DNA from: a virus
UHGV virus genome: UHGV-0100625
DNA length: 32,690 nucleotides
Strand: one strand, 5' to 3'
Part shown: in pieces, positions 8,750-32,690 of the stretch
How positions within the stretch are numbered: the stretch's first letter is position 1
Layout: each line of letters starts with the position of its first letter
Notes under the pieces: generated by a model
The model's input: the letters and a program-made list of their open reading frames with translations, nothing else
What the model was told of the DNA's origin: nothing
Database searches by the model: none
Program-made: the position numbers and the translations under genes

Positions 8750-9160
8750 TTATTGATTGGGGGTAGTGAAGTATTTGAAAAAGTCCACGGCGGCGGGATC
8801 CGTGATCACAAAAGCCGGGTAGTCCGAGACTGTAAAAATCCTGCGGCCTTTGGTCTCCGCATGGACGGCCTCAACGGTCAAAGACACCGCATCAATCATT
8901 GTATAGGCACCATCCTCCGCAAGGGTCAGGACATCTTTTCCCAGCCTTGCCCATACCTGGACGGCTTGCCAGTCCTCGCCCAGTTCCACCAGAGCGGCAA
9001 CGACGGCGGCCATGGCCGGGGTCTGGTTCGCCGGAATTTCGTCCTGCGTATAGCGGTCTATGCGGGTGTACCCGTCCGCGTCCTGATAAATGGCCGTCAA
9101 CGTGAATTCCTGCCAGTTGCCGGGCCGAGGGAACAGTATTTGTATCTCCGAAATATTCAT
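8750..9160 (-). CDS. hypothetical protein (possible fibre assembly/chaperone)
   Basis: 136-aa ORF. Its ATG at 9160-9158 overlaps the collagen-like gene stop (ATGA). No recognisable motif. Confidence 0.3.
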
Positions 9161-11118
9161 GATTCTTCAATGGGTACGTTAATATCTTCAAAAGCCGCCG
9201 TTTCTTCGGTTTCAATGGCATTGACAGCCATTGCTTCCAATGCGTGATAGGTTGGATTGGTCAATCCATTGGAATAAAGGTGCCTGGTGCCTGTGCCCGC
9301 GTCGGCTGAAAGGGCATATGTTTTCTCATTGCGCGCGTCGATAATCAGGGTGCTTACGCCTGTTCCTGCCTCGAAAGCGATGAAGCCGCGGAGAGAAGCT
9401 ATCTTGAACAGGGTATTGGTACTGCCGCCTCCCAGCTCCATATAAAGAGCCGCCTTTTCCTCCCGCACTGCTGTACTCGGCAGCCCGCTCTGCATGTAAA
9501 TAAGCCTGTTCAGCCCGTTTGGCATCAGCTCATTATGGCCTACCGGAAGAAATACGGTTGTCGTCTTCACCTGCCAGTGTCCAACGGACGATACATAAAA
9601 GATTTCCCTTACTCTGATTTCATACCCCTTGCGGACAGTATCGTAAGGAGTATTGATGGTAACATCGATGATTTCCCCATGGTTGACGGCCAGCTCGTTC
9701 CCCGGAATCATAGAATAAGAATCCATCGTCAACCCGGTTCTGTTGGTTTTTGAGCCGCGGCCTATGCCAAAAGTAAATTTAGCGAAGGCTGTCGCGTTGA
9801 CCGCAAGGGAAAATCCGCACACGGAACTGTAATTAAATTGACCGTTAGGCCCTATCAGGGGAATAACCGCTGACCCGTACGCATTGGACCCGGCAGAAGC
9901 TGCGCCCACCGAAAAACGCTGCGTCAACCCGGCAAGAGTACCGTTGGAAGATTTAGAAATGGAACCCGCGACTGTGATCGAACTGGAATTAAGGTATATA
10001 GGCTGAACCAACGCTGATACAGCACCGGCCAATCCTAACGTATAAAAGCGATTAACCGCCCCCGTATCGGTCGGCGCACCGACAGCAAGAGGGATGTTGA
10101 CGCCTCCGTTGGCGTTGATGGCGCTTGAAAACGTGGATGTCCCCGCGCAGTTGAAGCTGGCGCCCTGGCTGATATTCAGGATTCCAGTCTCTACCATGAA
10201 TGTCCCTCTCAGCCATCCGCCTGACCGAAGATCGACCGACTGGTAAAACCGGGTGATCCCGTAAATCTGATTCAGCGTGCCGGCGCTTCCGCTGCCGTCC
10301 GGGTTGTTGACCACCAGAGGCCCGTTCACGGTAGCTGACTCCGCGGTCAGGGCTCCCCCGATATTCACATCGCCAACGTTGGATGTCAGAGTACCAGGAT
10401 CTCCCTTTTCCCCTTGAGGGCCCTGGGGCCCCACCGGACCTTCCGGCCCCTGCGGGCCTTCGGGACCTTGCGGGCCGGCCGGGCCCGTATCTCCCTTCGG
10501 TCCCTGCTCTCCCGTTTCGCCCTGCGGCCCCCGTTCCCCGGTTTCGCCGCGGGGGCCCTGCGGCCCTTCGGGGCCGGTTTCGCCCCGTTCTCCCTGCGGG
10601 CCTGCCGGCCCTTCGGGACCGACATCCCCGCGGGGAATGGTGAAGGAGAGCTTATAGGAGCCGGCAGCCTCCCCTTTGACGGCTTCCGCGGCGGCGGGCG
10701 TCCCCGGCTCCCCGGTGGTGACTTCGTCAACGGACAGGCTAAAATTCTCCGCGTACTTCTTGGCCTGTTCCGCGTACCAGGCGGCGCTGGACGCATTATC
10801 AAGCACTACCTGCACGCAGCCGCTTCCTTCCGGCAGCTGCACGACGACCGCGCCCGCCACAGCCTGCTGCTCGCCGGGCAAGTCCGGCGTTACCCGGCCC
10901 GAAGAAACAAAGCAACCGTAGAGAAGGGGGCTTTCTTCGCTGCCGTCGTCCATGAAGACGTCATAGGACCACATGCCCGCAGGCACCGACTCCCAGGAAA
11001 TCACGCCGTTTCCCTCGTCGTCTCGGGAAAATCCGAACTCCGTCACGCCCGTCTTGAGGCGGACGGCTCCGCGCAGGGTGACGCCGCTCATATCGACGGG
11101 GTCGCCCTGGAAATCCAC
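9157..11118 (-). CDS. collagen-like (G-X-Y repeat) fibre protein
   Basis: 653 aa with about 26 consecutive GXY triplets ([28 protein letters not shown]...) encoded around 10390-10640. These are flanked by an N-terminal domain and a large beta-rich C-terminal domain. Confidence 0.7.
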
Positions 11119-18854: not shown

Positions 18855-19169
18855 GTCGGCTCCCTGTAACGGGTCCCAGTATTCGTACCATTGGGGACGG
18901 TTGGGCTTCCGGCTTTGTTCCGTCAGGGCTCGTCGGGCGAGGTCCGTCTCCAGCTCCTTGATTCTGGTCTCCTGTTGGGCGACCAGCTTCGGGGCGTTGA
19001 GGATATTTTTTAATGCGTTGAACCTGATCTGGAAGCGAAAGAAAATGGTGGTTGCAGGGGAAAGAGTTGGACTTTCGACTCGGGGACAGGAACCCCGCGT
19101 GATACCGTTTCACCACCCTGCGATTGATTACATATCGTCATATACGGATATGTTGATATGTTGTCAACC

Positions 19170-29729: not shown

Positions 29730-29800
29730 GTGTTTTTCTTGTTTATCTTTGATGTTAACGCTATTGCCTTTATTTCCGTTTAAGTCTATCCTCTGCGTTC

Positions 29801-30286
29801 ATGATTTTTTTCCAATACTTGGCAGAACTGCTTAAATTCGCTTGCAATTATGCAGGCATAATCTTTTCCGCAACAGGTGTTTATCTTTTCGCTCCTCAAA
29901 GCGTTCTTGAGGCCCTGCATATCAGCTATGCGGATCATGATTACCGCGATATTGCGGGGTACGTGTTCCTTTTTTCCGGATGCGCCCTGCTGGAAAGGGT
30001 TTGGAATATAATCAAATCCTCTTACGCCGAGGCAAAATCCCGTAAAAAGGTGATCAAGCGTCTCCATGCTCTCACTCCAAAAGAGAAAGATGTTCTTCTC
30101 AGATATATCTTCTTCGATACCCGCACACAGAGATTTGATGATAGGGATGGTATCGTAAATGGTCTGATAGCAGCCGGCATTCTTATTCGGCACTCCTTTT
30201 ATGGAAGCATTGTGACCGGGTTTGACGTCAACATCACCGATGTTGCCTGGGATTATCTCAAAAAGAATCCCCACTTGCTGAGCTAA
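29801..30286 (+). CDS. membrane protein, possibly SieB-like superinfection exclusion; mutually exclusive with the antisense ORF 29786..30295(-)
   Basis: 161-aa plus-strand ORF with two hydrophobic N-terminal segments and a soluble C-terminus. Purine-rich first codon positions. It would be divergent from xis. The fully overlapping minus-strand 169-aa ORF starts 3 nt after the RHH stop and has palindromic operators upstream, so the strand call is unresolved. Confidence 0.4.
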   Translation: MIFFQYLAELLKFACNYAGIIFSATGVYLFAPQSVLEALHISYADHDYRDIAGYVFLFSGCALLERVWNIIKSSYAEAKSRKKVIKRLHALTPKEKDVLLRYIFFDTRTQRFDDRDGIVNGLIAAGILIRHSFYGSIVTGFDVNITDVAWDYLKKNPHLLS

Positions 30287-30297
30287 GTAATCCATGT

Positions 30298-30534
30298 TTA
30301 TCGGTTGGCGGTTTCGGGGTTCTTTACAGGTGGTTCACCACCTATAGATAAAAAAACTCCCTTCTTTTTGATTCTCTTTTTTAGAGGTGGTTCACCACCC
30401 GCGAGTAAAAAAACTACTTGCCCGGAAACTGATCTTTGTTCTTTCCGCGCAATCAATTTTATTTGCTCAAATAAGTCAATAGGGAGGTTAATTGTTATTT
30501 GCTTTTTCTCGTATTTCTCGGGCGATGTTTTCAT
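30298..30534 (-). CDS. ribbon-helix-helix (CopG/Arc-like) regulator with repeat-encoded tail
   Basis: KKQITINLPIDLFEQIKLIARKEQRSVSGQVVFLL is an RHH motif. The C-terminal GGEPP repeats are encoded by the palindromic operator copies. ATG at 30534 checked. Confidence 0.45.
   Translation of the reverse strand: MKTSPEKYEKKQITINLPIDLFEQIKLIARKEQRSVSGQVVFLLAGGEPPLKKRIKKKGVFLSIGGEPPVKNPETANR
30328..30398. promoter_or_regulatory. operator-like palindromes GGTGGTTCACCACC x2 (30328-30341, 30385-30398), each within a ~33-bp direct repeat unit
   Basis: Exact 14-mer with perfect 6-bp arms. Both copies are followed by n5-6 TAAAAAAACT. The period is 57 bp. Confidence 0.45.
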
Positions 30535-30919
30535 AATCTTCGGGTGTAAGGATTACGTTTTGAGTTTGTTGAACTAAATAAGCGGTAATGATTTCAGTCA
30601 TCGTCATATTCAGTTCTTTTGCTCTCTTTTGAAATTTTCGGAAGAGGACGATGGGGATCCATACTGAAATCTGTTTTTTGTCTATCTTCCGTTGACTTGG
30701 CATGCGCTCAACATAATCGGTGGTTAACCACCAGTCAACACTATTTTTCATCTTTTTTACATTTTTTTCATCCAGCATCATTCCGGATCTCCTTCCTAAT
30801 TTTTTTTCATCATTAGAATTAAGCGCGTAATGTAGATAAGTAGACACATCTACATTGATATGCACACCTAAGGAATCTTTGATCGCCGAACGAGGAAACG
30901 AGGAGATTGACGAGTTCAT
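30488..30919 (-). CDS. ribbon-helix-helix regulator (C-terminal RHH; possibly a shorter product from the ATG at 30703)
   Basis: KKQISVWIPIVLFRKFQKRAKELNMTMTEIITAYL is an RHH motif. Palindrome copy 3 sits 16-29 nt upstream of the internal ATG at 30703. Confidence 0.45.
   Translation of the reverse strand: MNSSISSFPRSAIKDSLGVHINVDVSTYLHYALNSNDEKKLGRRSGMMLDEKNVKKMKNSVDWWLTTDYVERMPSQRKIDKKQISVWIPIVLFRKFQKRAKELNMTMTEIITAYLVQQTQNVILTPEDYENIAREIREKANNN
30719..30732. promoter_or_regulatory. operator-like perfect palindrome GGTGGTTAACCACC (third copy)
   Basis: Perfect 14-bp palindrome identical in its arms to the two copies at 30328 and 30385. Confidence 0.45.
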
Positions 30920-31062
30920 TTCTTCTTCTCATCCTTTTGAGTGATGTTTCGCAAGATCCTCTTTGTGGTTCGCCGGCAACCCTCCACAATGCCAAGGCCG
31001 AAACAAACGAACCCGAACATCACAGCCAGCAAGAAAAACACAAGCATCACGTTACCCGACAT
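30916..31062 (-). CDS. small membrane peptide (first gene of the leftward early operon)
   Basis: 47-aa ORF: MSGNVMLVFFLLAVMFGFVCFGLGIVEGCRRTTKRILRNITQKDEKKK. ATGA overlap with the downstream RHH ORF at 30919-30916. Below the track cutoff. Confidence 0.3.
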   Translation of the reverse strand: MSGNVMLVFFLLAVMFGFVCFGLGIVEGCRRTTKRILRNITQKDEKKK

Positions 31063-31127
31063 TGACGTAACCCTTTCTTGCTGAAAATTTATCTCCTAAT
31101 ACACTAATATTTAGTGCGTTATAATGC

Positions 31128-31141
31128 GGGGGGGGGGGGGG
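31128..31141. repeat. G14 homopolymeric tract (C14 on the minus strand)
   Basis: 14 consecutive G starting 2 nt after a perfect TATAAT (31120-31125). Intergenic. Confidence 0.9.
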
Positions 31142-31198
31142 AAATTTTTCCTGTTTTTTCATGAGATTTGAAGCCTTGTGGCTCCGTTAAGACGATTT

Positions 31199-31236
31199 GT
31201 CATGACTTTCGCGTTCAGAGGATGACAAGTCATGAC
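31199..31236. promoter_or_regulatory. two copies of the palindrome GTCATGAC (31199-31206, 31229-31236) within GTCATGACnTTC direct repeats
   Basis: Exact 8-bp palindromes 30 bp apart. TGACAAGTCA sits between them. Confidence 0.35.
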
Positions 31237-31329
31237 ATTCCCTCATTCGAGGTTCCAAGATTGACGACCGCCGAAAATGTGATATAAAAGTGCTTTCCTG
31301 AATAAGGATCCTTTCTATTCATTCTTTTT

Positions 31330-31362
31330 CCGCCTGCGTCGGGAGACGCGGGCGGTTTTTTT
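31330..31362 (+). terminator. strong rho-independent terminator (plus-strand orientation)
   Basis: CCGCCTGCGTC-GGGA-GACGCGGGCGG forms an 11-bp stem with one G-U pair, followed by TTTTTTT. It lies just 3' of the int stop on the opposite strand. Confidence 0.55.
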
Positions 31363-31370
31363 CGACGGGA

Positions 31371-32567
31371 TTACAAAATAATCTTGCTTGAGATTTCTTC
31401 CATGGCGTGAACCACATCCTGTGAATCAGGGCGGAAATAAACCCGCTCTATCTCTTCGGAATCATGCCCCACGATGAATCGGCACAAATCCGCAGGTACT
31501 CCAGCCAATCTTAAAATCGTTACTGCTGTGGCCCGCAAACTGTGAAAGCTTTTCTCGGATAGAACACGCTTATCACCTTTCGCTTTCATTCCATCCGAGG
31601 AAATGATGCCATGTTTTTTCAAAAGCCCTGTAAATTCGAGAGACAACTTGCTGGACTTCCCGCCCGCTTGAGCATGTTTCATTGCTGCCAATGGGAATAC
31701 AAATTCATTGATAGAATACTTTTCCCTTTCTTTCAGAATCTCTTTCAGAGGTCCAATGATGGGCTTGTTCATGCGCCGCTTGGTTTTCTGGGTAGTCATG
31801 GAGATCAGGCCGCCCTCCAGATTTACTTGATCCCATTTAAGCGTTGCAATATCTCCCAGCCTCTGGCCTCCGGTGTAAAGACAAACCCTTATCATGTCCG
31901 GCCATTCGTCCGGCAAAATCTCTACAAGCCTTTTGACTTCTTCTACAGTGAAAGCCCCCCGTTCCTGCTTATCAGCCTGTTTCTTTTTCTTGTCCAGCCT
32001 TGCCCCTCTAAAAGGATTTGAGCTAATCAATTCTTTTTCAACGGCCTGATTAAAAGCACATGATAGAGATTCAAGGTATCTGGATACTGTACCCGATGAA
32101 ACACGCTCCATTTCTACCTCGGAAAACTCCCTGACAACGTTTTTGTTCACAGACGAGATTGATTGTCCCCCATCATTTCCTAAAAAGGAAATAAACTGCT
32201 GGATTGCCTTTCGGTCCCGTTCATAGGCCTGAATCTTACCCGATCTTGATTGCAGCCATTCCTTCAAATAGGCGCCAACACTCACCACCTTTCTTCCAAG
32301 GCTGAATGACTGGATATCTCCCCCCGCTATCGCTTTAAGACGATTCGAGTCTACGAAGCCCGTCTTATATCCGTTTTCCAGTTCTTCAGCAATAAGGCGA
32401 GCCCTGGCTTCATTTTGAGACAGCAACGCTCTTTTATTGACGCCGGGAGGAATAACCTTTGGAACAACGTCAACGCGGGTTGTTTTTCTGATCTCTTTGC
32501 CGTCCAGGGTTCGGAAGACGGCAACCCATTTGTTATTTCTCTTGATGATTCCTGCCATGCTGTACAT
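31371..32567 (-). CDS. int: tyrosine recombinase / phage integrase
   Basis: 398 aa. C-terminal catalytic region HSLRATAVTILRLAGVPADLCRFIVGHDSEEIERVYFR carries the R...H-x-x-R...Y signature. The N-terminus has the SAM-like DNA-binding pattern. Confidence 0.9.
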   Translation of the reverse strand: MYSMAGIIKRNNKWVAVFRTLDGKEIRKTTRVDVVPKVIPPGVNKRALLSQNEARARLIAEELENGYKTGFVDSNRLKAIAGGDIQSFSLGRKVVSVGAYLKEWLQSRSGKIQAYERDRKAIQQFISFLGNDGGQSISSVNKNVVREFSEVEMERVSSGTVSRYLESLSCAFNQAVEKELISSNPFRGARLDKKKKQADKQERGAFTVEEVKRLVEILPDEWPDMIRVCLYTGGQRLGDIATLKWDQVNLEGGLISMTTQKTKRRMNKPIIGPLKEILKEREKYSINEFVFPLAAMKHAQAGGKSSKLSLEFTGLLKKHGIISSDGMKAKGDKRVLSEKSFHSLRATAVTILRLAGVPADLCRFIVGHDSEEIERVYFRPDSQDVVHAMEEISSKIIL

Positions 32568-32600
32568 TTTTTATATCATGTACAGCTCCATGTACAGGAA

Positions 32601-32622
32601 GCTTTACATAAACCACAATAAA
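32601..32622. repeat. 22-bp direct repeat copy 1 GCTTTACATAAACCACAATAAA (putative att core/arm site)
   Basis: Exact repeat of 32662-32683. Confidence 0.8.
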
Positions 32623-32643
32623 CTGGAATGCCCGAAAATAAAA

Positions 32644-32666
32644 AAAGCCTGATAAAATCAGGCTTT
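32644..32666 (-). terminator. rho-independent terminator between the two direct repeats (stronger on the minus strand)
   Basis: On the minus strand, AAGCCUGA-UUUUA-UCAGGCUU is followed by UUUUUUUAUUUU. On the plus strand it is followed by only TTT. It would stop leftward transcription entering from the right flank. Confidence 0.5.
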
Positions 32667-32683
32667 ACATAAACCACAATAAA
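32662..32683. repeat. 22-bp direct repeat copy 2 GCTTTACATAAACCACAATAAA
   Basis: Exact repeat of 32601-32622. It begins inside the 3' arm of the hairpin. Confidence 0.8.
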
Positions 32684-32690
32684 AGAAAAC

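Follow-up and report, generated by a model that had tools for sequence, protein, structure and literature searches.

The 32,690-bp stretch analysed here (UHGV virus genome UHGV-0100625; hereafter the window) is a near-complete prophage of Akkermansia muciniphila, a mosaic match (88–99.5% identity) to Akkermansia phage DTMo-2021a (CP084202.1, host NBRC 114322), and carries a run of 14 G (C14 on the minus, coding strand) between the integrase gene (int) and a regulatory operon encoding a 48-amino acid (aa) membrane protein, an Arc-like protein and a second ribbon-helix-helix protein (Table 1). Judged by comparison with homologous loci, this run is a real, conserved and hypervariable repeat in the phage control region, a probable slipped-strand contingency locus, and it probably switches the operon on and off. 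In the account favoured here, to which slightly less than an even chance is given, tract length would act by setting the frame of a short leader open reading frame (ORF) and with it the coupling of translation into the operon.

Table 1 Features at and around the poly-G tract of the window.
Feature	Position	Strand	Description and source
Poly-G tract	31128–31141		G14 on plus, C14 on minus (coding) strand; hypermutable homopolymer, simple-sequence contingency locus on comparison of loci
Short leader ORF	31052–31162	−	36 aa, MKKQEKF-PPPPP-HYNALNISVLGDKFSARKGYVNVG; tract 7 codons after ATG; from ORF list
Small leader hairpin	31170–31185	−	GGAGCC-ACAA-GGCTTC; RNAfold
First operon gene	30916–31062	−	48-aa protein, one membrane helix, basic tail; stop overlaps next start (ATGA)
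Second operon gene	30488–30919	−	143-aa protein, Arc-like, ribbon-helix-helix-like C-terminal DNA-binding domain; profile matches, AlphaFold
Third operon gene	30298–30534	−	78-aa ribbon-helix-helix protein; Pfam RHH_5, E = 3e-6, above curated cut-off
Candidate promoter P2	31086–31114	−	−35 CTAAAT 31114–31109, 17 nt, −10 TAAATT 31091–31086; tract ~49–62 nt upstream of start
Near-palindrome adjoining tract	31116–31127		GCGTTATAATGC; holds plus-strand TATAAT and minus-strand TATAAC; read from sequence
Operator-like array	31197–31237		GTCATGAC at 31229–31236 and 31199–31206; TTGTCAT at 31222–31228
Candidate promoter P1	31205–31233	−	−35 ATGACT 31233–31228, 17 nt, −10 GAAAGT 31210–31205; start near 31198; matrix score 6.1
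Predicted small-RNA promoter	31261–31288	+	−35 TTGACG 31261–31266, 16 nt, TG 31280–31281, −10 TATAAA 31283–31288
Candidate ~68-nt non-coding RNA	31295–31362	+	5′ hairpin, C/U-rich single strand CCUUUCUAUUCAUUCUUUUUCC, terminator hairpin with U7
Intrinsic terminator	31330–31362	+	11-pair stem (9 G-C, one G·U), GGGA loop, T7; terminator scan

Length variation and conservation of the poly-G tract

Elsewhere in the 32,690 bases the longest G or C run is six (run-length distribution), and since such runs stop at six everywhere else in 32.7 kb, G14 is not attributable to chance; it also lies in the range (about 7–9 or more G/C) in which homopolymers are hypermutable. Related loci were gathered by flank patterns and by the neighbouring protein, giving 29 independent contigs with both flanks. 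The tract was found at the homologous position in all 29, at lengths of 5, 8 (four contigs), 9 (two), 10, 11, 12 (six), 13 (four), 14 (two), 15 (four), 16 (two), 18 and 27, with a single-base interruption in one run of 12 and one of 16. Differences of up to six occurred within groups having identical 140-nt flanks ({12,13,13,14}, {12,13}, {9,15} and {14,18}), while the short C8 allele measured 8 in three separate samples; on these alleles, the steadiness of C8 against the variation of the long tracts is the length-dependent instability expected of slippage. When 3.4 kb of the window was compared with GCA_030268425.1 and CP084202.1, tract length (14 versus 13 and 12, respectively) was the only indel, the other differences being two bases ≤5 nt from the tract. 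Tract length evolves far more rapidly than the sequence that surrounds it.

Around 12 additional contigs end at or inside the tract, and a viral contig of 33,065 bp has its two ends on opposite sides of it. Such breaks fit population switching, yet poor sequencing of poly-G could also cause them; as the tract breaks many prophage assemblies, contigs ending there should not be taken as phage ends. The initial annotation had named the tract a hypermutable phase-variation candidate and suggested comparing homologous prophages for length polymorphism: the comparison found it, and the 5–27 range across 29 contigs, the sole indel over 3.4 kb and the assembly breaks all bear out the candidate.

The tract is present in every flank type carrying the 48-aa gene and absent only from L021–L023, which have a different upstream region. 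It is also kept in lineages with diverged flanks and a 143-aa protein only 81–85% identical, a persistence that argues for selection for the tract. An assembly artefact was rejected as its origin, both flanks being recovered in 29 contigs that come from separate projects and include a complete genome (L059) and a phage record in GenBank. Scanning genome contigs with a flank 25-mer gave no match, and with an 18-mer gave one Akkermansia metagenome-assembled genome and four chance matches.

Two minor observations concern the sequence beside the tract. Positions 31142–31149 read AAATTTTT in the window and TAATATTT in CP084202.1, GCA_030268425.1 and most relatives, two substitutions that may reflect error-prone repair beside the repeat or sequencing error. 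At positions 1–40 of L035 (IMGVR_UViG_3300045988_146845), GAGATGTGTATAAGAGACAG, presumably a Nextera adapter, is joined to phage sequence just after the tract, a junction apparently created by misassembly at the repeat.

In A. muciniphila, experiments have shown slippage at a G9 tract (Amuc_1413; PMC13055324). That tract shares with the present one the host genus, the G run, indels that shift the frame into nearby stops and length differences among public genomes; it lies inside a 735-aa chromosomal exopolysaccharide-export gene, whereas the tract described here is phage-borne, reaches 27 and is placed in a control leader/micro-ORF before regulatory genes. Contingency loci built on simple repeats are a classic feature of mucosal bacteria, and Campylobacter phages have poly-G tracts as contingency loci. 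In T2/T4, hypermutable simple repeats acting as contingency loci give heterogeneity among progeny (bioRxiv 10.1101/2025.10.21.683753). Phage contingency loci have only just been reported, and those of T2/T4 and the Campylobacter phages are short runs in ordinary coding genes (glucosyltransferase, rIIA, receptor-binding proteins) of lytic phages, unlike the long run in a regulatory region of a temperate phage seen here.

If the proposed role is correct, the tract would introduce heritable chance into the regulatory decisions of the phage and not into a surface structure. The 143-aa protein, used as a marker, is listed for 662 blocks within the collection of public assemblies, so the phage family is common in human gut Akkermansia. 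The genus includes a species under development as a probiotic, and a tract length that sets induction or immunity would affect strain stability and phage–host dynamics in the gut.

Leader ORF, candidate promoters and possible modes of action

In the favoured mechanism, transcription of the operon would begin upstream of the tract, in the region flanked by operators, so that the leader RNA would include the tract. Adding or removing a single C would move the stop of the leader ORF. In one frame of three, translation would continue across the first gene's Shine-Dalgarno sequence until it met a TAA lying 8 nt beyond the ATG of that gene. Such read-through would couple leader translation to that of a series of overlapping genes, since the stop of the 48-aa gene overlaps the next start; in the two remaining frames ribosomes would halt 2–6 codons past the tract. 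Tract length would set operon output per lysogen or phage lineage, heritably but reversibly. In many relatives, the operon has a gene for a Bro-N/ANT antirepressor in place of that for the second ribbon-helix-helix protein. Placement of the tract in the leader is argued by the absence of any promoter spanning it, by the operator-like repeats and a −10-like GAnAnT upstream, and by hairpin covariation.

The leader ORF is one of several in a gap that had been described as 290 bp long and free of ORFs longer than 21 aa. From the int stop (31371) to the ATG at 31062 the gap measures 308 bp, and it holds ORFs of 36 aa (31052–31162, minus, crossing the tract), 39 aa (31168–31287, plus), 30 aa and 32 aa with ATG, GTG or TTG starts. 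The leader ATG (31162) is invariant in 11 aligned flank variants, the next seven codons read MKKQE-x-L, and the tract is then read as prolines. In the read-through frame the ORF stays open for 22 further codons, to the TAA just inside the 48-aa gene (ATGTCGGGTAA; TAG in three variants). In 17 of 17 flank variants exactly one frame reaches that stop and the other two stop shortly after the tract, giving products of 33–36 aa in frame and 12–18 aa out of frame; the tract thus has the geometry of an intragenic frameshift repeat, lying within an ORF with near stops in the other two frames. The ratio of nonsynonymous to synonymous polymorphism (pN/pS) was 0.40–0.43 in the leader ORF versus 0.86–1.12 in the other frames, a difference that is not significant. 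The three short stable lineages (C5, C8 and C8) are all in frame, compared with four of 20 contigs with a tract of at least 12, a contrast drawn post hoc. The leader ORF is not called by gene finders, and its translation is only suggested by these patterns.

The small leader hairpin upstream of the tract contains one covarying pair (C-G in five sequences, U-A in six) and an invariant G·U that would pair in minus-strand RNA only, weakly favouring minus-strand transcription through the region. Two variants of the mechanism were rejected. The leader ORF cannot be fused to the 48-aa ORF, because the TAG or TAA in TTAGGAG/TTAAGAG closes that frame in all variants. A simple structure switch was rejected too, since folding the leader with 5–27 C left the ribosome-binding site of the 48-aa gene equally accessible at every length.

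Promoters were sought with a sigma-70 weight-matrix scan of 14 variants, run because A. muciniphila promoters have −35 and −10 (TATAAT-like) elements (PMC4782308). It replaced a consensus scan that had missed both the TATAAT beside the tract and the small-RNA promoter, since a −35 match and T at position 6 were required. No tract-spanning sigma-70 promoter was found in the 14 variants, the best spanning matches scoring 3.2–4.1, and no −10 was found that the tract would place 16–18 bp from a −35 or activator site. Conserved elements of a sigma-54 pattern, of a transcription start inside the tract or of a leaderless start at the leader ATG were not seen by eye. Two sense-strand candidates, P1 and P2, are inferred to be promoters from their matrix matches. 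P1 is bracketed by both palindromes of the operator-like array; its −10 in other lineages is GAAATT or GATAAT, with A2 and T6 retained, and its −35 is present only alongside the outer palindrome. P2 is the sole sense-strand candidate in all 14 variants, with a spacer of fixed length and variable sequence, in an AT-rich region where chance matches are likely. If P1 is in use, the tract lies within the transcribed leader; if P2 is in use, it lies upstream of the start.

Several observations weigh against control through the leader ORF. P1 has a modest score and its −35 is absent in lineages where int abuts the region, while with the conserved P2 as the working promoter the tract would not be transcribed. 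No Shine-Dalgarno sequence was seen for the leader ORF, its coding signal was matched by 141 of 1000 column shuffles, and its variable sites are split 10/5/8 over codon positions 1/2/3. Of 29 contigs, 11 have the tract in the read-through frame, as many as chance would give, and the commonest lengths (12–13) are out of frame for the flank type of the window. Some of the one-base length differences in Illumina and nanopore assemblies could also be sequencing error.

Transcription from P2 would suit a promoter-proximal rheostat, in which tract length would alter the distance or helical phase to an upstream A/T-rich stretch or to operator-bound proteins and so grade transcription of the operon. 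This is considered unlikely. The hexamers of P2 are better conserved than its spacer, it alone among sense-strand candidates is common to all variants scanned, its elements are of a kind that occurs in A. muciniphila promoters (PMC4782308) and a palindrome (GCATT..AATGC) lies between the tract and its −35; however, P2 scores are low to moderate (4.4–8.3) in a stretch where chance matches are common, an antisense match of equal quality overlaps it, and the 5–27 range is far wider than expected for a geometry-sensitive element. An activator site was not identified.

Intergenic runs that are polymorphic among strains and set downstream expression include the C stretch of Bordetella fim, Neisseria opc and porA, the T tract of Helicobacter pylori sabA and the poly-G of Moraxella uspA1. 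The fim, opc and porA runs lie between −35 (or activator) and −10, a geometry that differs from that of the present tract, for which the positions seen in sabA (upstream of −35) and uspA1 (in the leader) would be possible.

The tract might instead be a tolerated mutational hotspot, unstable and without a regulatory role, its runs regenerated by slippage or its spacer length immaterial. The chance-level share of in-frame alleles points that way, as do the independence of all promoter elements from the tract and the existence of decayed alleles (C5 in L029, interrupted runs in L009 and L044). This explanation is also improbable: the lack of any other G/C run above 6 in the phage implies that long runs are normally purged, and the tract is held at one site across diverged lineages with changed flanks. 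Its population pattern is moreover like that of known functional contingency loci, those of Neisseria, Haemophilus and Campylobacter included, in which off states are frequent.

Probable operators, the TATAAT hexamer and a candidate small plus-strand RNA

The two GTCATGAC palindromes of the initial annotation were confirmed at 31199–31206 and 31229–31236. They are the only copies in the window, over the whole of which 0.28 would be expected, and they belong to an array of TGTCAT/ATGACA half-sites in which TGTCAT recurs directly at a 10-bp distance and TTGTCAT(C)...(G)ATGACAA forms an inverted pair; three of the 11 TGTCAT copies in the window fall inside this array. The arrangement TTGTCATC-N18-GATGACA is retained in all flank lineages but one (the right arm is lost in L017), and an additional TGTCATGACA precedes int in L013-type and L012-type loci, where int is inverted. 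An earlier suggestion that the palindromes are integrase sites does not hold: they lie 1.3 kb from the attachment-site (att) end and are linked to the operon control region whichever integrase adjoins, and integrase arm sites were ruled out by this position and by linkage to the operon and not to int. From their placement, the GTCATGAC/TGTCAT repeats look like operators common to the divergent units on either side, and are likely to be operators of a ribbon-helix-helix repressor.

A 14-bp palindrome, GGTGGTTNACCACC, occurs three times inside the two ribbon-helix-helix genes (30329–30342, 30386–30399 and 30719–30732; 0.01 expected by chance). Its copies encode different peptides (GGEPP twice, WWLTT once), so it seems conserved as a DNA motif, and the copies could be further operator or protein-binding sites.

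The TATAAT at 31120–31125 is followed, as claimed, by GC and then by the 14 G at 31128–31141. It was proposed to drive a ~230-nt antisense RNA through G14 to the terminator, with C14 as the −35/−10 spacer of a minus-strand TATAAC promoter as the alternative. Other lineages read GCATT-TGT-AA(C/T)GC at this site, retaining the inverted arms GCATT/AATGC and losing both −10-like hexamers, and in seven of 17 flank variants the near-palindrome is replaced by GCGTTACAAATGC with the tract still present. The TATAAT hexamer is perfect, transcription starting 7 nt further on would begin within the G run and the orientation of the terminator is correct, but this model is very improbable: the hexamer has neither a −35 nor a TG extension and went unreported by the consensus scan; TACAAA and TTGTAAC stand in place of TATAAT and TATAAC in those seven variants; no promoter spans the tract; the terminator has its own conserved promoter 40 nt upstream and is missing from L003-, L006- and L025-type loci that retain the tract; and the invariant G·U of the leader hairpin suits minus-strand and not plus-strand RNA. 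Mechanisms beyond these four readings take up the small probability that remains.

The terminator itself was confirmed, its plus-strand hairpin at 31330–31355 being followed by T7 to 31362; a scan of 30000–32690 gave no other plus-strand terminator-like site. On the minus strand, A5GAA comes after the hairpin, which in that orientation departs from the consensus needed to terminate int. Rather than ending a ~230-nt RNA, the terminator is a candidate for closing an independent ~68-nt RNA gene, which points away from the operon and has a promoter to itself. This promoter has the best score in the region (9.9, weight-matrix scan), and its −35 TTG and the block AATGTGATATAAAAG are retained in three unrelated upstream contexts (TTGACG, TTGCCT and TTGAAA). 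The predicted RNA has no ORF and a fold energy of −28.5 kcal/mol (z = −4.8). Nine unique sequences fall into two alleles with the same layout, whose G·U pairs lie at different stem positions and would be A·C mismatches in minus-strand RNA.

The unit always lies between the operon and the integrase gene, in either integrase orientation, and is missing from some tract-bearing lineages (L003, L006 and L025 types). Rfam gave no match to the RNA at gathering score and only chance-level ones (E ~1). In a search for targets within the window, no outstanding duplex was found with any start region; the best non-self duplex (−18.1 kcal/mol) lies inside a gene, and the search otherwise returned the trivial self-antisense match.

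In some relatives (L012, 3500–4310), two plus-strand genes separate the operator array from the small RNA unit, encoding a 109-aa membrane protein and a 158-aa protein that by eye resembles a DUF4065/Panacea-type antitoxin. This insertion point is likely a cargo site for defence or toxin–antitoxin genes.

Operon proteins and other features of the prophage

The 48-aa gene is a real coding sequence, its pN/pS being lowest in frame (0.28 versus 0.84 and 1.50 out of frame; 26 variants). The 143-aa protein, whose family is confined to Akkermansia, has a variable N-terminal part and a highly conserved C-terminal domain. Its profile matches are weak but consistent with one another (PHROG Arc-like repressor, E = 7e-4; BrnA antitoxin, E = 0.013). 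AlphaFold confidence (predicted local distance difference test) was 86–91 per 10-residue block at residues 91–140 and 70 at residues 81–90, and the best PDB fold matches, CopG, Arc, CdbA and AmrZ, are all ribbon-helix-helix proteins, none of them significant (E >0.5); a PDB sequence search gave no match. In L051–L053, L056 and L059 the 143-aa gene is followed by the Bro-N/ANT antirepressor gene. The window has no antirepressor gene, the 143-aa gene being followed there by the 78-aa RHH_5 gene and then a convergent SieB gene.

Phage P22 immI comprises the arc-ant operon, Mnt and the sar antisense RNA. The present region resembles it in an Arc-like gene before an antirepressor gene (in relatives), palindromic promoter operators and a ~68-nt RNA in the control region. 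Unlike P22 immI, the window lacks an antirepressor, its small RNA is divergent and not antisense to a ribosome-binding site, and a 48-aa membrane-protein gene comes first; P22 in turn has no repeat tract. As the antirepressor is missing, the window is not filed as an arc-ant member. Tentatively, and with distinctly less confidence than in the leader mechanism, the locus may represent a repeat-based stochastic switch on an Arc/antirepressor-type operon in a temperate phage of a key human gut commensal, which would keep lysogen populations mixed at all times in spontaneous induction, superinfection immunity or exclusion. Its route may be unusual, through a polyproline micro-ORF in a poly-C leader, whose frame would decide coupling and might also govern how far an ideal Rho-loading site is exposed or stalling dependent on elongation factor P (EF-P).

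Nearly all genes of the window are on the minus strand, including those for the integrase (31371–32567), RecT, an exonuclease, a methyltransferase and the terminase, as well as the three operon genes to the left of the tract. Beyond the 78-aa gene lie the plus-strand SieB gene (29801–30286) and then an excisionase-like HTH_17 gene. The SieB ORF is completely overlapped by a long minus-strand ORF (29786–30295), and only the plus-strand ORF of the pair has a family match (SieB, E = 1.5e-19); the SieB gene is therefore convergent with the ribbon-helix-helix operon. A terminator-like site was not found between the two.

Scanning the window and 31000–31420 for tRNAs and Rfam families gave nothing relevant. 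A tRNA-Arg gene (anticodon CCT; 19049–19122, minus) lies within the prophage, immediately upstream of the gene for the large terminase. Positions 1–20 of the window begin with TGGCGGAGCGGGAGGGATTC, which resembles the reverse complement of a tRNA 3′ end and may be an attachment-site remnant; the record of DTMo-2021a has its end at window position 12. Two exact direct copies of a 22-nt sequence (GCTTTACATAAACCACAATAAA; 32601–32622 and 32662–32683) bracket a hairpin immediately upstream of where the integrase gene starts, with no third copy elsewhere in the window, and three TGTACA motifs lie at 32555–32600; these are possibly attachment-site or integrase-binding repeats. Finally, imperfect 9-nt-periodic repeats (CCCTGCGGGCC-like) at 10421–10621, inside a 653-aa ORF (9157–11118), have a periodicity that suggests a collagen-like Gly-X-Y stretch of a tail fibre protein.

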